Part shown: positions 16,278-24,361 of the stretch, one piece after another | How positions within the stretch are numbered: the first letter of the stretch is position 1 | How the letters are laid out: the number at the start of each line of letters is the position of its first letter | Assembly (NCBI RefSeq): GCF_013315695.1 | Contig: NZ_CP054353.1 | Source: Escherichia coli | GTDB lineage: Bacteria > Pseudomonadota > Gammaproteobacteria > Enterobacterales > Enterobacteriaceae | Strand: one strand, 5' to 3' | DNA: 64,000 nucleotides | Notes under the pieces: generated by a model | Database searches by the model: none | What the model saw: the letters and a program-made list of their open reading frames with translations, nothing else | Told to the model about the DNA's origin: nothing | Translations under genes and position numbers: made by a program

Positions 16278-16296
16278 TTGCAAGAGGGCCATTTTC

Positions 16297-16343
16297 ACAC
16301 TATCTTGCAGTGAATCCCAAACATACCCCCTATATATAGTGTT
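16297..16343 (+). promoter_or_regulatory. Two NrdR-box-like palindromes (acactatcttgcagtg and ccctatatatagtgtt) in the nrdA promoter / 5' leader
   Basis: Partial inverted repeats resembling the NrdR box, located about 80-120 nt upstream of the nrdA ATG. Confidence 0.5.
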
Positions 16344-16419
16344 CTAAGCAGCTTCCCTCACTACAGGTAGTCTGCATGAAACTATTGCGGAAAGAATTCC
16401 AAAAACAGGTACGACATAC

Positions 16420-18705
16420 ATGAATCAGAATCTGCTGGTGACAAAGCGCGACGGTAGCACAGAGCGCATCAATCTCGACAAAATCCATCGCGTTCTGGAT
16501 TGGGCGGCAGAAGGACTGCATAACGTTTCGATTTCCCAGGTCGAACTGCGCTCCCACATTCAGTTTTATGACGGTATCAAGACCTCTGACATCCACGAAA
16601 CCATTATCAAGGCTGCCGCAGACCTGATCTCCCGTGATGCGCCGGATTATCAGTATCTCGCCGCGCGCCTGGCGATCTTCCACCTGCGTAAAAAAGCCTA
16701 CGGCCAGTTTGAGCCGCCTGCGCTGTACGACCACGTGGTGAAAATGGTCGAGATGGGCAAATACGATAATCATCTGCTGGAAGACTACACGGAAGAAGAG
16801 TTCAAGCAGATGGACACGTTTATCGATCACGACCGTGATATGACCTTCTCTTATGCTGCCGTTAAGCAGCTGGAAGGCAAATATCTGGTGCAGAACCGTG
16901 TGACCGGCGAAATCTACGAAAGCGCCCAGTTCCTTTATATTCTGGTTGCCGCGTGCCTGTTCTCGAACTACCCGCGTGAAACGCGCCTGCAATACGTGAA
17001 GCGTTTTTACGACGCGGTTTCCACATTTAAAATTTCGCTGCCGACGCCAATCATGTCCGGCGTGCGTACCCCGACTCGTCAGTTCAGCTCCTGCGTACTG
17101 ATCGAGTGCGGCGACAGCCTGGATTCCATCAACGCCACCTCCAGCGCGATTGTTAAATACGTTTCCCAGCGTGCCGGGATCGGCATCAACGCCGGGCGTA
17201 TTCGTGCGCTGGGTAGCCCGATTCGCGGTGGCGAAGCGTTCCATACCGGTTGTATTCCGTTCTATAAGCATTTCCAGACAGCGGTGAAATCCTGCTCTCA
17301 GGGCGGTGTGCGCGGCGGTGCGGCAACACTGTTCTACCCGATGTGGCATCTGGAAGTGGAAAGCCTGCTGGTGTTGAAAAACAACCGTGGGGTTGAAGGC
17401 AACCGCGTGCGTCATATGGACTACGGGGTACAAATCAACAAACTGATGTATACCCGTCTGCTGAAAGGTGAAGATATCACCCTGTTCAGCCCGTCCGACG
17501 TACCGGGGCTGTACGACGCGTTCTTCGCCGATCAGGAAGAGTTTGAACGCCTGTACACCAAATATGAGAAAGATGACAGCATCCGCAAGCAGCGTGTGAA
17601 AGCCGTTGAGCTGTTCTCGCTGATGATGCAGGAACGTGCGTCTACCGGTCGTATCTATATTCAGAACGTAGACCACTGCAACACCCACAGCCCGTTTGAT
17701 CCGGCTATTGCACCAGTGCGCCAGTCTAACCTGTGCCTGGAAATCGCCCTACCGACCAAACCACTGAACGACGTCAACGACGAGAACGGTGAAATCGCGC
17801 TGTGTACGCTTTCTGCTTTCAACCTGGGCGCAATTAACAGCCTGGATGAACTGGAAGAGCTGGCAATTCTGGCGGTTCGCGCACTCGACGCACTGCTGGA
17901 TTATCAGGATTACCCGATCCCGGCCGCTAAACGTGGAGCGATGGGGCGTCGTACGCTGGGTATTGGTGTGATCAACTTCGCTTACTATCTGGCGAAGCAC
18001 GGTAAACGCTACTCCGACGGCAGCGCCAACAACCTGACGCATAAAACCTTCGAAGCCATTCAGTATTACCTGCTGAAAGCGTCTAATGAGCTGGCGAAAG
18101 AGCAAGGCGCGTGCCCGTGGTTTAACGAAACCACTTACGCGAAAGGGATCCTGCCGATCGATACCTATAAGAAAGATCTGGATGCCATCGCTAATGAGCC
18201 GCTGCATTACGACTGGGAAGCACTGCGTGAGTCAATCAAAACGCACGGCCTGCGTAACTCCACGCTTTCTGCTCTGATGCCGTCAGAGACCTCTTCGCAG
18301 ATCTCTAACGCCACTAACGGTATTGAACCGCCGCGTGGTTACGTCAGCATCAAAGCGTCGAAAGACGGTATTCTGCGCCAGGTGGTGCCGGACTACGAGC
18401 ATCTGCACGACGCCTATGAACTGCTGTGGGAAATGCCGGGTAACGATGGCTATCTGCAACTGGTGGGTATCATGCAGAAATTTATCGATCAGTCGATCTC
18501 TGCTAACACCAACTACGATCCGTCACGCTTCCCGTCAGGAAAAGTGCCGATGCAGCAACTGCTGAAAGACCTGCTCACCGCCTACAAATTCGGGGTTAAA
18601 ACGCTGTATTATCAGAACACCCGTGACGGTGCTGAAGACGCACAAGACGATCTGGTGCCGTCAATCCAGGACGATGGCTGCGAAAGCGGCGCATGTAAGA
18701 TCTGA
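16420..18705 (+). CDS. nrdA: Ribonucleoside-diphosphate reductase 1, alpha subunit
   Basis: 761-aa ORF MNQNLLVTKRDGSTERINLDKIHRVLDWAAEGL...; class Ia RNR large subunit. Confidence 0.98.
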   Translation: MNQNLLVTKRDGSTERINLDKIHRVLDWAAEGLHNVSISQVELRSHIQFYDGIKTSDIHETIIKAAADLISRDAPDYQYLAARLAIFHLRKKAYGQFEPPALYDHVVKMVEMGKYDNHLLEDYTEEEFKQMDTFIDHDRDMTFSYAAVKQLEGKYLVQNRVTGEIYESAQFLYILVAACLFSNYPRETRLQYVKRFYDAVSTFKISLPTPIMSGVRTPTRQFSSCVLIECGDSLDSINATSSAIVKYVSQRAGIGINAGRIRALGSPIRGGEAFHTGCIPFYKHFQTAVKSCSQGGVRGGAATLFYPMWHLEVESLLVLKNNRGVEGNRVRHMDYGVQINKLMYTRLLKGEDITLFSPSDVPGLYDAFFADQEEFERLYTKYEKDDSIRKQRVKAVELFSLMMQERASTGRIYIQNVDHCNTHSPFDPAIAPVRQSNLCLEIALPTKPLNDVNDENGEIALCTLSAFNLGAINSLDELEELAILAVRALDALLDYQDYPIPAAKRGAMGRRTLGIGVINFAYYLAKHGKRYSDGSANNLTHKTFEAIQYYLLKASNELAKEQGACPWFNETTYAKGILPIDTYKKDLDAIANEPLHYDWEALRESIKTHGLRNSTLSALMPSETSSQISNATNGIEPPRGYVSIKASKDGILRQVVPDYEHLHDAYELLWEMPGNDGYLQLVGIMQKFIDQSISANTNYDPSRFPSGKVPMQQLLKDLLTAYKFGVKTLYYQNTRDGAEDAQDDLVPSIQDDGCESGACKI

Positions 18706-19981: not shown

Positions 19982-20235
19982 TGGCCCGCGTTACCCTGCG
20001 CATCACTGGCACACAGCTGCTGTGCCAGGATGAACACCCTTCCCTTCTGGCGGCGCTGGAATCCCACAATGTGGCGGTTGAGTATCAGTGCCGCGAAGGT
20101 TACTGCGGTTCCTGTCGCACACGCCTTGTTGCAGGCCAGGTGGACTGGATTGCCGAACCGTTAGCCTTTATTCAGCCGGGGGAAATTTTGCCCTGTTGTT
20201 GCCGGGCAAAAGGCGATATTGAAATCGAGTTGTGA
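19981..20235 (+). CDS. yfaE: 2Fe-2S ferredoxin YfaE (RNR diferric-tyrosyl cofactor maintenance)
   Basis: 84-aa ORF with Cys cluster CREGYCGSCRTRL...CCC; ATG overlaps the nrdB stop. Confidence 0.93.
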   Translation: MARVTLRITGTQLLCQDEHPSLLAALESHNVAVEYQCREGYCGSCRTRLVAGQVDWIAEPLAFIQPGEILPCCCRAKGDIEIEL

Positions 20236-20247
20236 TCGGGTACTAGC

Positions 20248-20283
20248 GCCAGATACGACGCTTACGCGTATTATCTGGCCTAC
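20248..20283. repeat. REP-like palindromic unit between convergent yfaE and inaA (probable bidirectional terminator)
   Basis: gccagatacgacgcttacgcgtattatctggcctac. Confidence 0.6.
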
Positions 20284-20288
20284 AACGA

Positions 20289-20939
20289 TTACATGGCGTA
20301 GTAATACGCTTTCACCTGCTCCCAGTCCGCTTTAGGGATCGGCTCCAGATATTTTTCCAGCTGGCGGAAGTCATGATTAATCGCTTTATCACGACGCAAG
20401 CGGCGACGACTTTTCTCCAGGTCAAGAAATCCAGCTTCTGCCTTACCTTCTGTTTTCACATAGATATGGCGAACATAACAACAGCCATGCTGACAATTAA
20501 CGCTATGCATTTTCTTAAACGCCAGCGCCACTGCTTTCAACATGGCTTGCCGTACTTCGTCAGAATAAGGCGATACTGCATGCCGGGCATACCAGTCAGC
20601 AATGCTGATGAACCCCGCCATATCTTCAGTCACCAGCAACGCGCGCCATTCCCCCTCAATTTTCACCGCTTCACCAAAAACGATCTTCGGCACGATGACA
20701 CCAGCCCGTTCCAGTTCTTTAATTACCGCAACCTCACGGACAATCGTTGGTCGACCGAACGGATAACGTACGGAATGAAACAGATGATGCGTCATGCGCT
20801 TTACATATAGCTTTTTGCCGTTGCGCTCGACGCATTGCACCCCGCTCATACCATTACGGCGATAGTTAGGCTCTTCAACCCAGTCGCCCTCTGTTGCCCA
20901 CCAGTGATTAAATTCGTCGTGCTTTGCTGAAACTGCCAT
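20289..20939 (-). CDS. inaA: Acid-inducible Kdo/WaaP-family kinase InaA
   Basis: 216-aa ORF MAVSAKHDEFNHWWATEGDWVEEPNYRRNGMSGVQ... Confidence 0.93.
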   Translation of the reverse strand: MAVSAKHDEFNHWWATEGDWVEEPNYRRNGMSGVQCVERNGKKLYVKRMTHHLFHSVRYPFGRPTIVREVAVIKELERAGVIVPKIVFGEAVKIEGEWRALLVTEDMAGFISIADWYARHAVSPYSDEVRQAMLKAVALAFKKMHSVNCQHGCCYVRHIYVKTEGKAEAGFLDLEKSRRRLRRDKAINHDFRQLEKYLEPIPKADWEQVKAYYYAM

Positions 20940-21019
20940 ACCCTATCGCCTGTCATTTTTTATTTACGACAATGACTATAGGTGGTTACCTGCGAAAAAT
21001 CTTAATGAAACGTGTCGTA

Positions 21020-22210
21020 TTAATGAATTTCTTTTGCCACTACTAGCGCGACACCGCTTTTGCCCTTCATTTGCAGCGCATAGACTCCACCAGCCACTAC
21101 CACTAATAGTGCACCCAGCAGATAAATCATTCGGTAGCCAGTATGTGCAACCATCATCCCCATCACACAGGCTCCCAGCGCCAGGCCTGCATCCATCGCA
21201 TTGAAGAAGAGGGAGTTTGCGACACCGATTTTATGCGGTTCCACTGAACTGATAATCTGCGTCTGAAAAACTGGCGTCACGGAACCATACCCGATACCAA
21301 TCAATGCGCCAGAAACAACCATCATTATGCTTCCCTGGGTGTAGCCGAGAACCACCAGTCCTACCGTAAAGAACACAAGGCAAGGGTAAACCACATATTT
21401 CGGTCCTTTTTTGTCGCAGACATTGCCGGTAAAGGTACGGCAGATCATCAGGAAGATAGCGTAGCAAAGCAGGAAATTACTGGCTGCCGACATCAGGTTA
21501 AGTTCGCGTGCATAAAGCGCCAGAAAAGCAGAAACCCCGGCATACGAAAAGGTCATAAAAAAGGTGACCATCGCAAATGGCAACGCCGCGCGATCGAACA
21601 TGGCGGCGAAGCCCATTTTCGGCGTTGAACCATCAGCATGGCTGATAACCGGCGGCACTGTCATAATCAGCGACAGAATAATCCCCACCGCTGCCACGCC
21701 GGTGCATAACCAGAAAGCCATATTAAAGGCCTCCCAGCGCGCCATATTCAGGCCAATCCACGGCCCGACCACCATTGCCAGCCCCATTGCCAGAGAGAAA
21801 AAACTGATGCCCTCCCCACGTCGGGAGGCCGGGATCAGCCGCGCGGAAATCGTTCCTTTTACCGTAGTGATAACCCCGAAGGTAATACCATGAAGCACCC
21901 GAATAAAAAGCAGTGATTCAATTGAGTGGCAAAAAGGATACAGCGCAGTGACCACCAAGAAGGCCAGAGAAGAGAGCCCCAGAATAGTTTTATTCGAGTA
22001 TTTGCCCACCCATTGCCCGGCAAAGGGGCGAATAACAATGGCGGCAATTAAAAATAAAGTCACCAACAAACCTGCTTTATCAGGAGAGGCATGCAAGCGG
22101 TCTGAGATATAAATTGGCAACAATGTTAGTAAAACATAAAAGACGAAGAAAATAATAAAGCTGATGATGGTTATTGCCCAAAAATCCTTCGTCCATAACT
22201 TCTCTTTCAT
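21020..22210 (-). CDS. MFS transporter (12-TM, substrate unknown)
   Basis: 396-aa highly hydrophobic ORF MKEKLWTKDFWAITIISFIIFFVFYVLLTLLPIYISDRL...; not present between inaA and glpQ in K-12 as I recall it. Confidence 0.8.
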   Translation of the reverse strand: MKEKLWTKDFWAITIISFIIFFVFYVLLTLLPIYISDRLHASPDKAGLLVTLFLIAAIVIRPFAGQWVGKYSNKTILGLSSLAFLVVTALYPFCHSIESLLFIRVLHGITFGVITTVKGTISARLIPASRRGEGISFFSLAMGLAMVVGPWIGLNMARWEAFNMAFWLCTGVAAVGIILSLIMTVPPVISHADGSTPKMGFAAMFDRAALPFAMVTFFMTFSYAGVSAFLALYARELNLMSAASNFLLCYAIFLMICRTFTGNVCDKKGPKYVVYPCLVFFTVGLVVLGYTQGSIMMVVSGALIGIGYGSVTPVFQTQIISSVEPHKIGVANSLFFNAMDAGLALGACVMGMMVAHTGYRMIYLLGALLVVVAGGVYALQMKGKSGVALVVAKEIH

Positions 22211-22361
22211 ACCCTACCGCCTGTCAGGATGACGCACGCAGACAACACTCCCGTTACTGCGGTTGCGTCAAATTGTGATGTACTTTGCAGAACAGAAGTA
22301 TAAATGGCGGCATGCTATTAGAGAAATTAATCGTTTTAATATTATTGATTAGCAAACTCTA

Positions 22362-23261
22362 ATGACTCTTACCCAAATAAATTCTTTACTCGCCGTGCTG
22401 GATTACGGTGGCTTTACTGAAGCCAGCAAGCGATTGTTCATGACGCAGTCGGCGGTAAGTCAGGCAATTGCTGCCCTCGAACAAGAACTTGGCGTGAATA
22501 TACTGTTACGCGATCGCCGTAAAGCTATACAACTGACCTCTGCAGGTCACCGCATTATGCATCATCTGCGCGCCATTAATCGGGAAGTGAACGCAGTAAA
22601 AGAGATAGCCGAGCAGGAAAAGCAGAACCCTCAAAGAACGCTGAGACTTGGTTGTTTCCCCAGCGTCTGCGCCTGTATCTTACCGGCTGTGATTCGCTAC
22701 TTTGAAATTCATCATCCGAATATAAAAATTATTCCTTTTGAGGAAAATAGCACAGCGATTATTGATTCCCTTCAGAATGAATCCATTGATGCCGGTTTTG
22801 TTCATTTTCCGGTGAGCGGAATGTACTCCGTGCCCATTTATCAGGATAAATTCACCGTAGTGTTACCGCCCAACCATGCTCTGGCAAAAAACAGCACTAT
22901 TACAGTGGAAGAGTTAATGGGTGAACCATTAATTATTAGTAAAGGACGCTATGAATTAAGCATTATGGCACTATTTAAAGAAAAGAATATTACCCCACAG
23001 ATAAAATATGAATTTAATCACCCGGATACAGCGATCAGTTTTATTCGACAGGGATTAGGCATCGCCTTATTACCAGAGTTAACGCTGAAAACCATTGCAG
23101 ATGAATTGTGTTCCGTTCCTCTCGAACCAACCTTCTATCGACAGATTTCGTTGCTGGCTAAAGAAAAGCCGGTAGAAGGCAGTCCACTGTTTTTACTACA
23201 AATGTGCACAGAACAATTAGTGGAGAGTGGAAAATTTGATATGAGACAGGATGGCGCATGA
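22362..23261 (+). CDS. yfaH: LysR-family transcriptional regulator (intact counterpart of the K-12 yfaH pseudogene locus)
   Basis: 299-aa ORF; N-terminal HTH ...FTEASKRLFMTQSAVSQAIAALEQELGVNILLRDRRKAIQLTSAG; divergent from the MFS gene. Confidence 0.75.
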   Translation: MTLTQINSLLAVLDYGGFTEASKRLFMTQSAVSQAIAALEQELGVNILLRDRRKAIQLTSAGHRIMHHLRAINREVNAVKEIAEQEKQNPQRTLRLGCFPSVCACILPAVIRYFEIHHPNIKIIPFEENSTAIIDSLQNESIDAGFVHFPVSGMYSVPIYQDKFTVVLPPNHALAKNSTITVEELMGEPLIISKGRYELSIMALFKEKNITPQIKYEFNHPDTAISFIRQGLGIALLPELTLKTIADELCSVPLEPTFYRQISLLAKEKPVEGSPLFLLQMCTEQLVESGKFDMRQDGA

Positions 23262-23280
23262 ACGCCATCCTGCAGTAGCA

Positions 23281-24357
23281 TTACTCTTTATTAAGGAATT
23301 TTACTGCCTTATCAGGGAAATCAGTAAACAGCCCATTTACACCCGCTTTGTTATACAGAGCATCATATAACTGATTCACATCAGTAGTGTATTCAGGCAG
23401 CTTATCTGACCGCACGGTGTAAGGATGCACTACCAGTTTATTCTGCTGAGCATCTTGCACCATGCCAGTGAGTTTGATATTACCTGGCTGCGATGTCTCC
23501 TCAATCAACATATGGTAATCCGGACCAATACCATCAGCATATTCCGCCACCTGTTTCATGGCCCCCGGCTTAAACATCCAGTCGTAGTTGTAATTAACCC
23601 AGCTTCCGTCCGGCTGTTTCTGCTGAGTTTCGTTCCAGTCGGTATAGGCAATCAGCTGTACCAGATTGAGGTCCATGCCCATTTTAGGTTCCAGCTCATT
23701 CTTAATACGCTTCAGTTCATCGGCATCAAAACATTGCAAATAAACTTTGTCGTCCTTACCGGTGTAACCATATTTCTTCAGCACTTCCAGCGTTTTTGCC
23801 GCAATATCCTTCCCTTCCTGATGATGGAACCACGGCGCTTTAATCTCCGGGTAGATACCAATATTTTTCCCGGTAGAGTGATTTAACCCCTGAACAAATT
23901 CAATCTCTTCTTCAAAGGTGTGCACCCGGAAGTCGGACTTACCCATTGGGAAACGCCCCGGATAAGTCTGTACTTTCTTACCGTTTTCAATATCGAAACC
24001 TTCGGTAAATTTCAGTGACTTAATTTCATCGAGCGTGAAATCTATCGCGTAGTAACGACCGTCTTTGCGCGCCCGATCCGGGAAACGATCGGCAACATCA
24101 GTAACACGATCGAGATAATGGTCATGCAGAACAACCAGATGGTCGTCTTTGGTCATCACCAAATCCTGTTCCAGATAATCCGCTCCCTGCGCATACGCCA
24201 TCGCTTTTGCTGGCAGCGTATGCTCCGGCAAATATCCACTGGCACCGCGATGGGCGATGACTATTTTTTCGTTGCTGTCCGCCGCCATTGCACTGCTTCC
24301 CATGATCATTCCACTCATCATGATCGCCATGCTAAGGTTTTTCAGCGTCAATTTCAT
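23281..24357 (-). CDS. glpQ: Periplasmic glycerophosphodiester phosphodiesterase
   Basis: Start placed at MKLTLKNLSMAIMMSG... (signal peptide) within track ORF 23281..24414; HRGASGYLPEHT active-site motif. Confidence 0.96.
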   Translation of the reverse strand: MKLTLKNLSMAIMMSGMIMGSSAMAADSNEKIVIAHRGASGYLPEHTLPAKAMAYAQGADYLEQDLVMTKDDHLVVLHDHYLDRVTDVADRFPDRARKDGRYYAIDFTLDEIKSLKFTEGFDIENGKKVQTYPGRFPMGKSDFRVHTFEEEIEFVQGLNHSTGKNIGIYPEIKAPWFHHQEGKDIAAKTLEVLKKYGYTGKDDKVYLQCFDADELKRIKNELEPKMGMDLNLVQLIAYTDWNETQQKQPDGSWVNYNYDWMFKPGAMKQVAEYADGIGPDYHMLIEETSQPGNIKLTGMVQDAQQNKLVVHPYTVRSDKLPEYTTDVNQLYDALYNKAGVNGLFTDFPDKAVKFLNKE

Positions 24358-24361
24358 GCCA

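Follow-up and report, generated by a model that had tools for sequence, protein, structure and literature searches.

The intact yfaH locus of Escherichia coli: a conserved LysR-type regulator gene divergently paired with an MFS transporter gene

Two divergent genes lie between inaA and glpQ

The window, a 64,000-nucleotide stretch of Escherichia coli DNA, carries between inaA and glpQ a transporter gene and a regulator gene that diverge from a shared control region:

21020..22210, minus strand: MFS transporter gene, 396 aa with 12 predicted transmembrane (TM) helices (RefSeq WP_000660218.1; ortholog of O157 Sakai ECs_3121)
22362..23261, plus strand: LysR-type regulator gene, the full-length form of the K-12 pseudogene yfaH, 299 aa (RefSeq WP_000176733.1; ortholog of Sakai ECs_3122, "yfaH")
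22211..22361: divergent control region, 151 bp between the transporter and regulator starts

An earlier note on this DNA had described an intact 396-aa MFS transporter and a complete, divergently transcribed 299-aa LysR regulator, and both open reading frames were found at these coordinates, separated by the 151-bp spacer. The transporter matched the Pfam family PF07690 (MFS_1) with 198.6 bits against a gathering score of 33.4, which places it in the MFS, and the regulator contained both domains of a LysR-type protein, HTH_1 (65.5 against 26.6) and LysR_substrate (126.8 against 28). The same two genes are present in the RefSeq annotation of NZ_OZ547117.1, a record that is 100% identical to the window. 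The intact locus is not new, as public genomes already annotate it, for example as ECs_3121 and ECs_3122 in Sakai, and its presence in this strain is an ordinary strain difference rather than a new system.

The pair is conserved across genera

The divergent pair was found downstream of nrdA-nrdB-yfaE in Salmonella, Citrobacter, Kluyvera, the Klebsiella oxytoca group, Superficieibacter, Phytobacter, Pluralibacter, Pseudocitrobacter and other Escherichia species. At least 10 genera have transporter orthologs that are 79-96% identical, and the divergence of the pair across genera tracks taxonomy. Genus-specific insertion junctions, a sign of independent gains, were not seen among the outgroup genomes. 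Both genes are under strong purifying selection (dN/dS: transporter 0.02-0.12, regulator 0.04-0.16). The shared position after nrdAB-yfaE and the low dN/dS together indicate that the pair is ancestral and functional where it has been kept, which bears out the description of the locus in the earlier note as the ancestral or intact form.

In distant Bacillota homologs (Neobacillus, Desulfosporosinus; transporter identity 34-55%), a divergent LysR gene is still paired with the transporter gene. Relatives beyond Enterobacterales were picked with query-derived peptide patterns, so that their invariant N-terminus and the apparent dearth of other proteobacterial relatives may be biased. The neighborhoods of the distant homologs in Desulfosporosinus, Bacillus, Neobacillus and Leminorella had only the LysR gene in common and offered no clue to the substrate; genes found nearby encode a radical SAM protein, a dienelactone hydrolase, a two-component system, Usp and DsbB.

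The pair was lost at least twice in E. coli

K-12 lacks 1,879 bp of the locus, consisting of one copy of an 8-bp direct repeat and the DNA between both copies, and its deletion junction reads ...CCCAGCAGATAAAATGTGAATTT. The repeat copies that bound the K-12-type deletion are as follows:

21119..21126: left copy of the direct repeat CAGATAAA
22998..23005: right copy of the direct repeat CAGATAAA

The deletion left a 105-bp remnant of the transporter gene and the pseudogene yfaH, which corresponds to the C-terminus of the regulator. In MG1655, neither gene is intact and yfaH (b2238) is the only annotated remnant between inaA and glpQ. The statement in the earlier note that K-12 has only a yfaH fragment therefore holds for the annotation of MG1655, but not for the sequence, in which the 105-bp transporter fragment is also kept; in K-12 HMS174, PGAP finds this remnant of the transporter 3' end. 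The K-12 fragment represents residues 226-291 of the window regulator, as matched by NF007272, the NCBIfam YfaH model, which was built on the 68-aa K-12 fragment (140.8 bits, cut-off 139; profile positions 2-67 of 68). The intact locus thus explains the origin of the pseudogene. As a natural null for the conserved pair, K-12 offers a clean and convenient background in which the function of the cassette could be studied.

We considered the opposite polarity, in which the K-12 state is original and this strain gained the pair as an island by horizontal transfer. Several observations would fit acquisition: the A+T-rich composition of the regulator gene (GC about 41-46%, compared with about 50-54% for the flanking DNA), the finding that Bacillota, at 55% identity, are the nearest relatives located outside the enterobacteria, and the lack of any recognizable gene remnant at the empty site of the CFT073 type. 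However, K-12 holds truncated 3' ends of both genes, fused at the 8-bp microhomology, and the pair sits in the same slot behind yfaE across at least 10 genera, its divergence following taxonomy. A transfer between phyla in the distant past is conceivable, though it would have to be older than Enterobacteriaceae. The remnants in K-12 and the synteny across genera effectively refute an island acquired by this strain, which we regard as extremely improbable.

Locus states were counted in 5,426 complete E. coli genomes. The intact pair was present in 1,216 of them, the K-12-type junction in 3,131 (about 58%), and the pair was wholly missing from 1,058 (about 19%), CFT073 among them. E. coli has lost the pair at least twice, once by the K-12-type deletion and once by the complete loss of the CFT073 type. 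The filler of roughly 100 bp at the CFT073-type empty site matched neither of the two genes nor the 1.7-kb segment of Sakai described below at a significant level; only its terminator-like hairpin resembles the window.

A part of the locus also exists in two forms within the species:

22030..23300: segment with two deeply divergent E. coli haplotypes, comprising the transporter 5' end, the spacer and the whole regulator gene; the window carries the common haplotype

Between the window and strain F829, 100-bp intervals of this segment were mostly 68-83% identical (48-58% in two intervals containing indels), whereas the flanks were 90-100% identical. The two regulators share 83.6% amino acid identity, with a dS of 2.8, and about 100 E. 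coli genomes fall within the 80-90% identity band. It is conceivable, but in our judgment improbable, that these patterns reflect lineage-specific selection on the handling of a host or niche metabolite. This would make the locus an uncharacterized, deeply conserved LysR-MFS cassette, common to Enterobacteriaceae and Bacillota, that was affected in E. coli by two deletions (~77% of genomes) and, in ~100 genomes, by a sharply bounded swap, limited to the regulator and operator, to an allele as divergent as that of another genus. If so, the cassette would set EHEC and some extraintestinal lineages apart in phenotype from K-12 or B2 strains.

The regulator carries a C-terminal extension

The named LysR equivalogs (GltC, CidR, AlsR, CynR, HcaR, CysB, OxyR) all scored far below their cut-offs with the regulator, the best being GltC of the Gram-positive type (129.3 against 350), and its closest solved relatives were CysB, BenM and OxyR. 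Two features mark the 3' end of the gene:

23229..23240, plus strand: 1-bp deletion in an A-run (window GGAAAATTTGAT), which puts the last codon out of frame and lengthens the protein by 7 residues
23247..23272: 10-bp G+C-rich hairpin between the convergent regulator gene and glpQ, a likely bidirectional terminator

The canonical regulator is 292 aa long, as in 19 of the 22 other sequences compared, and ends in ...SGKI* or similar; the remaining three have 289, 291 and 295 aa. At the A-run, K-12 and E. coli 135 read GGAAAAATTTGA and two other Escherichia species read GGTAAAATTTGA or GGTGAAATTTGA, all of them one base longer than the window and in the canonical frame. The frameshift replaces the last residue of the regulator with FDMRQDGA. 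The 299-aa regulator that the earlier note called complete is a frameshift-extended version of a 292-aa protein. At least 1000 contigs on record encode the identical 299-aa protein, so that it represents a true allele rather than an error of sequencing. The shifted frame stops in the loop of the hairpin, which has a fold energy of -23.2 kcal/mol (z = -4.1) and was not called by a simple terminator scan.

The 1-bp deletion changes the regulator C-terminus and brings translation into the terminator stem, and the locus is plainly dispensable, as ~77% of E. coli genomes lack it. Both points could mean that the module is decaying in this strain, with an inactive, frameshifted regulator and a transporter that is either silent or constitutive. 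Against such decay, the frameshift exchanges just the final residue and appends 7 more, both regulator domains are complete, the 299-aa allele is widespread, and the transporter retains every invariant residue of its family. We consider decay very unlikely, and the 7-residue extension is probably harmless.

The transporter resembles proton-coupled exporters

The AlphaFold2 model of the transporter contains 12 helices (mean pLDDT 86.5, pTM 0.84) and aligned with many solved MFS structures at TM-scores of 0.75-0.82. Its best fold matches were NorA (TM 0.82), MFSD10, VMAT and YajR, and the search also returned the symporters/exchangers DgoT, MCT1 and OxlT. By sequence, the best relatives were all exporters or putative exporters (YfcJ, YhhS, CntE, EmrB, MxcK, Cmx, NorA and SotB). 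The scores stayed well below the cut-offs of NF003477 (YfcJ-type; 109.8 bits against 374), NF009048 (YhhS-type; 85.1 against 364) and NF047574 (CntE metallophore exporter; 72.6 against 235), and no cnt-like biosynthesis genes were found near the pair.

Arg104 in TM4, Gly149-Pro150 in TM5 and Asp340 in TM11 are invariant in the transporter family and Gly153 is nearly so, with D340 in helix 11 being the sole invariant membrane acidic residue. The signature of DHA1 drug:H+ antiporters consists of motif C in TM5 (G-x8-G-x3-G-P-x2-G-G) and the motif B arginine in TM4. The transporter matched motif C in part; the spacing of the upstream glycines and the second G of the GG do not fit. The transporter is closest to proton-coupled exporters with a NorA-like fold, yet it is a member of no characterized family, and it would most likely be a proton-coupled carrier of a small organic molecule.

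Regarding direction, we lean toward export over uptake, with about even confidence in export as such. The lean toward export draws on the sequence relatives, the best fold matches, the invariant Arg104, Gly149-Pro150 and Asp340, and the lack of a catabolic enzyme conserved beside the pair in the genomes examined. Family resemblance is weak evidence on transport direction. The other possibility, that the same module encodes an inducible uptake system in which an H+ symporter imports a nutrient sensed by YfaH, appears less probable, although a real contender. It draws on the symporters/exchangers among the fold neighbors and on PunR-PunC, in which a LysR regulator and an adjacent MFS transporter of a drug-efflux-like family enable growth on purine nucleosides (PMC8376909). 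However, no co-conserved catabolic enzyme accompanies the pair in any genome examined, whether from Enterobacteriaceae, Leminorella or Bacillota, the named sequence families scoring above noise all consist of exporters or putative exporters, and the TM5 Gly-Pro is present.

The control region contains a conserved candidate LysR-type box

The spacer was aligned across 20 taxa, and the following elements were identified:

22326..22340: candidate LysR-type box ATTAA-TCGTT-TTAAT, a perfect dyad (ATTAA-N5-TTAAT) detected as a palindrome and containing T-N11-A
22348..22363: second conserved dyad ATTAG-N6-CTAAT of putative role, overlapping the regulator start codon, its centre 22.5 bp from that of the first box
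22297..22302, minus strand: candidate -10 hexamer TATACT of the transporter promoter, proposed from its conservation
22265..22279: conserved block GCGTCAAATTGTGAT, in which TGTGA is invariant

Variation in spacer length (151-218 bp; 67 bp) was confined to the transporter side, and the roughly 65 bp between the TATA-like element and the start codon of the regulator were gap-free and partly invariant. The box core AAATTAATC.T.TTAAT was the best-conserved stretch of the spacer in the 20 taxa, which include Leminorella, with 11 invariant positions and every other position shared by 90% or more of the taxa. The arrangement typical of LysR-type control, a T-N11-A dyad in a control region shared with a divergent gene, is therefore present at the sequence level. 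The second dyad is gap-free and largely conserved, and the ribosome-binding site and start codon may account for part of this conservation.

Most taxa have a TAnnnT hexamer (TATACT, TATAAT, TATTAT, TATGAT, TAGAAT or TAAAAT) at a fixed minus-strand position. A consensus promoter/terminator scan returned nothing in the spacer, the candidate -10 included, and gave fewer total matches than in shuffles. In two Citrobacter species, a 56-bp insertion separates the TGTGA block from the LysR box, indicating that a fixed spacing between the two is not required. A CRP site at the TGTGA block was rejected because the second half-site is not conserved. A search of the locus against Rfam gave two chance-level matches, both below gathering scores, and no riboswitch or sRNA.

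The conserved dyad beside a -10-like element supports, as a candidate arrangement, LysR-controlled expression of the transporter. The box thereby lends support to the regulatory side of the substrate-inducible efflux or uptake system suggested in the earlier note, which stays a hypothesis as to substrate and direction. Classical LysR-type regulators repress their own genes and activate the target promoter when a co-inducer is bound. By this model, YfaH would bind the ATTAA-N5-TTAAT box and probably also the neighboring ATTAG-N6-CTAAT dyad, which would place its sites just upstream of the -10-like element on the transporter strand and inside the leader or promoter of its own gene. YfaH would repress itself and, with a small-molecule co-inducer bound, activate the transporter promoter. 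The box is centered near -43 of the proposed transporter promoter, as opposed to the textbook LysR site at -65, which counts against the model. Either dyad may serve as the recognition site, with the other as the activation site.

On balance, we moderately favor the interpretation that the locus is the intact, ancestral enterobacterial form of yfaH, a self-contained two-gene module of a LysR regulator and a divergent 12-helix MFS transporter under YfaH control. The pair is one of many uncharacterized LysR/MFS modules and its significance beyond housekeeping is small; if its substrate were identified, a minor gap in the inventory of enterobacterial transporters would be closed.

Comparison with known systems

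Full-text literature mentioned yfaH only incidentally and without a function, and searches for ECs3121-3123 and for STM2280/STM2281 (Salmonella tags that may be wrong) returned nothing on function. A 2026 survey of Salmonella LysR regulators did not mention the locus under the terms tried.

The same locus in O157:H7 Sakai has both genes intact (ECs_3121 and ECs_3122) between inaA and glpQ, but Sakai encodes a 292-aa regulator and has an extra 1.7-kb segment before glpQ (ECs_3123, no Pfam match), whereas the window encodes 299 aa and lacks the segment. The K-12 locus (yfaH, b2238) differs from that of the window by the 1,879-bp loss.

In the PunR-PunC (YdhB-YdhC) system, the best-studied LysR/MFS pair of E. 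coli, a LysR regulator activates an adjacent MFS transporter of a drug-efflux-like family, which is reported to be an uptake system and supports growth on purine nucleosides (PMC8376909). Both this system and the yfaH pair are two-gene LysR-plus-MFS units with a palindromic operator near the regulator gene and an effector presumed to be the transported compound. The two are not close in sequence, as no PunR or PunC model was among the 25 best NCBIfam matches of each protein, and PunC differs in that its substrate and uptake role were tested.

YfcJ and YhhS are E. coli MFS transporters with putative efflux function (PMC3429515). Their NCBIfam models scored best with the window transporter over the full length, and both proteins have 12 TM helices and a similar size. 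YhhS is 24% identical to the window transporter, and the YfcJ match is local only (119 residues). Both are themselves poorly characterized, and neither has an adjacent LysR gene.

NorA, a DHA1 drug:H+ antiporter of Staphylococcus aureus, was the best solved structure both by sequence (E 2.3e-13, N-terminal half) and by fold. Both transporters have the TM4 Arg and the TM5 Gly-Pro, at an identity of 17-19%. In NorA, a pair of acidic residues is essential (E222 and D307 are the positions mutated in solved entries); D340 stands alone as the invariant membrane acidic residue of the window transporter.

The inaA-glpQ locus and its partial deletion in K-12

The window is E. coli chromosomal DNA with the gene order nrdA-nrdB-yfaE / inaA / MFS / LysR / glpQ-glpT / glpABC; the 4.3-kb region queried (window positions 20200-24500) is 100% identical to that of isolate AF3 (NZ_OZ547117.1; blood culture, UK). 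The 396-aa and 299-aa reading frames claimed by the earlier note were both found, with matching coordinates and strands, and are separated by a 151-bp spacer:

21020-22210, minus strand: MFS transporter gene, 396 aa; Pfam MFS_1, 198.6 bits
22362-23261, plus strand: LysR-type regulator gene (YfaH), 299 aa; Pfam HTH_1, 65.5 bits, and LysR_substrate, 126.8 bits

The statement of the earlier note that K-12 carries just the yfaH pseudogene here agrees with the MG1655 annotation, in which yfaH (b2238) is the sole gene between inaA and glpQ. In K-12 HMS174 (PGAP annotation), a 105-bp remnant of the transporter gene's 3' end abuts a 243-bp remnant of the LysR gene's 3' end; neither strain has the two genes intact. 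Alignment of the inaA-glpQ region with K-12, by pairwise BLAST and junction inspection, showed that 1,879 bp are missing from K-12, and the end points of this deletion fall within copies of an 8-bp direct repeat, CAGATAAA (window 21119-21126 and 22998-23005). The NCBIfam model of the 68-aa K-12 YfaH fragment matched regulator residues 226-291 above cut-off.

Two further features were observed in the window. In the yfaE-inaA gap (20205-20280, plus strand), Rfam gave a sub-threshold naRNA4 match, scoring 28.9 bits with E 0.026 (gathering score 59.5), which probably marks a REP-type repeat. Between gyrA and ubiG, which are adjacent in CFT073 and O157 Sakai, lies a three-gene insert (7548-11026) that resembles an acid-sugar utilisation island in decay, with an intact mandelate racemase/muconate-lactonizing family enzyme and an MFS transporter and GntR regulator that are both annotated as frameshifted.

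Population states in E. coli

Among 5,426 complete E. coli genomes, the interior deleted from K-12 was present (at least 80% covered) in 1,216, the K-12 junction was found in one piece in 3,131, and the pair was completely absent from 1,058, the inaA-glpQ gap of 202 bp in this last state being identical in CFT073 and strain A26. The three states sum to 5,405 genomes, and the remainder includes IS1-disrupted variants. Independent IS1 insertions occurred in several strains (NZ_OZ546925.1, NZ_CP018965.1, NZ_CP196168.1 and one further match), within the regulator gene, beside the K-12-type remnant or within a 1.7-kb segment. The CFT073-type empty site (CFT073 16287-16488; 1840-1942 in locus record L004) contains ~100 bp without detectable similarity to either lost gene, the one feature recognisable in it being a divergent version of the terminator hairpin; it could stem either from an old deletion followed by decay or from replacement.

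The A+T-rich 1.7-kb segment lies between the regulator stop codon and the glpQ terminator in 1,046 intact genomes of the survey, always on the chromosome (4041-5775 in locus record L003; from 48149 in the Sakai record, L049), with its insertion point at window ~23248. It is absent from the window, K-12 and other Escherichia species. Its product is hypothetical protein ECs_3123 of O157 Sakai, which is frameshifted in strain 135 and had no match in a Pfam search.

The segment ~22030-23300 exists as a different haplotype in about 100 E. coli genomes, with ~76% DNA identity to the window and flanks of mostly 96-100% identity; its regulator is 83.6% identical (dS ~2.8). The haplotype replaces, with sharp boundaries, the transporter 5' end, the spacer and the entire regulator (strain F829; ~4000-5170 in locus record L010). 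At ~24% DNA divergence, this allele is farther from the window than those of other Escherichia species; purifying selection persists (dN/dS 0.04), and the LysR box is kept.

Since 1,046 of the intact genomes carry the 1.7-kb segment and ~100 the divergent haplotype, the combination seen in the window, an intact pair with the common regulator haplotype and without the 1.7-kb segment, is a minority state of at most ~170 genomes.

Ancestry and selection

The same divergent pair was found directly 3' of nrdA-nrdB-yfaE, usually followed by glpQ-glpT or glpA, in Salmonella enterica (three subspecies), several Citrobacter species, Kluyvera, the Klebsiella oxytoca group, Superficieibacter, Phytobacter, Pluralibacter, Pseudocitrobacter and three other Escherichia species. 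Across these taxa identity falls from 96% to 79% for the transporter and from 95% to 59% for the regulator, and wherever dS was measurable, dN/dS was 0.02-0.12 and 0.04-0.16, respectively. Together with the K-12 remnants, this synteny, identity and constraint leave one reasonable reading of the sequences, namely that the pair is ancestral, functional and lost in most E. coli. The earlier note, which took it for the ancestral or intact form, was correct in its finding and sound in its interpretation.

Among the taxa compared, Escherichia and Pseudocitrobacter alone have inaA (window 20289-20939) interposed between yfaE and the transporter gene, which are immediate neighbours in Salmonella, Citrobacter, Klebsiella, Kluyvera and others. 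Several genera lack glpQ, or glpQ and glpT, at this site.

The lower G+C content of the regulator gene relative to its flanks, and Bacillota relatives, the nearest retrieved from outside Enterobacterales, with 55% identity in two genomes (Desulfosporosinus, L035; Bacillus sp. EB600, L036) and ~34% in Neobacillus (L038-L041), would allow for a very ancient transfer between phyla. Most of these relatives have their own divergent LysR gene, and they share the N-terminus MKEKLWTK. The peptide patterns used to retrieve them were derived from the query, which biases the sampling, and the likeness may reflect this bias rather than transfer.

Regulator C-terminus

Of 22 other regulator sequences, 19 are 292 aa long and the remainder 289, 291 and 295 aa. 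In the window one A is missing from GGAAAAATTTGA, which converts the final Ile to FDMRQDGA, and the extended frame stops within the loop of a 10-bp hairpin (23247-23272). Since the HTH_1 and LysR_substrate domains are unaffected and the allele is common, the deletion is probably neutral.

Control region

In an alignment of 20 taxa, no gaps interrupt the 65 bp next to the regulator start codon, and variation in spacer length (151-218 bp) is confined to the transporter side; a separate alignment covered four taxa. The best-conserved stretch of the gap-free part is AAATTAATC.T.TTAAT, with 11 invariant positions and at least 90% of taxa agreeing at the others. The elements are:

22265-22279: conserved spacer block GCGTCAAATTGTGAT (TGTGA invariant)
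22302-22297, transporter strand: TAnnnT hexamer in most taxa (TATACT in the window), 24 bases to the other side of the box
22326-22340: candidate LysR box, perfect dyad ATTAA-N5-TTAAT, containing the LysR-family T-N11-A pattern
22348-22363: second dyad, ATTAG-N6-CTAAT, two helical turns from the box

Two Citrobacter species (L014, L016) have a 56-bp insertion between the TGTGA block and the TATA-like element, giving spacers of 217-218 bp. A consensus promoter scan of the spacer detected no promoter, which is usual with activator-dependent promoters and is no evidence for one.

From this arrangement we infer a model in which the hexamer would be the transporter -10 element, and the two dyads, at roughly -43 and -65, would be bound by a YfaH tetramer. 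Ligand-responsive YfaH would activate the transporter and repress its own transcript, which would have to start within or upstream of the dyads. The variable DNA, including the Citrobacter insertion, would fall harmlessly in the transporter 5' leader.

Comparison with known systems

The intact genes bear the RefSeq labels 'MFS transporter' and 'LysR family transcriptional regulator', and the O157 Sakai labels 'antibiotic efflux protein' (ECs_3121) and 'yfaH' (ECs_3122); yfaH of K-12 has a pseudogene annotation. A literature search covering the locus, the Sakai gene names and a Salmonella LysR survey found no functional study. What the locus shows is an ordinary polymorphism, already known, in the presence or absence of an uncharacterised LysR-MFS module.

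The transporter fits no curated family among the NCBIfam models, all of which scored below cut-off: YfcJ type, the best (109.8 bits against 374), YhhS type (85.1 against 364; 24% identity to YhhS) and CntE (72.6 against 235). Little is known about YfcJ and YhhS themselves (PMC3429515). Among solved proteins, NorA (N-terminal half, E 2e-13) and SotB come closest in sequence. The AlphaFold2 model, which is confident (pLDDT 86.5, 12 helices), is closest to NorA (TM 0.82), MFSD10, VMAT1/2 and YajR, with MCT1, OxlT and DgoT nearly as close in fold. Among the residues that do not vary between enterobacterial and Bacillota members are R61, R104 (TM4), G149-P150 (TM5), R258, D266 and D340 (TM11), and no co-conserved catabolic genes lie beside the pair in the genomes examined. 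Given the exporter-like relatives, the Gly-Pro in TM5 and this complete lack of catabolic neighbours, we lean towards proton-coupled export of a small organic compound, to which we give about an even chance, rather than uptake, a possible but distinctly less probable role. As PunR-PunC illustrates, uptake can be the function of a LysR/MFS pair of an efflux-like family (PMC8376909).
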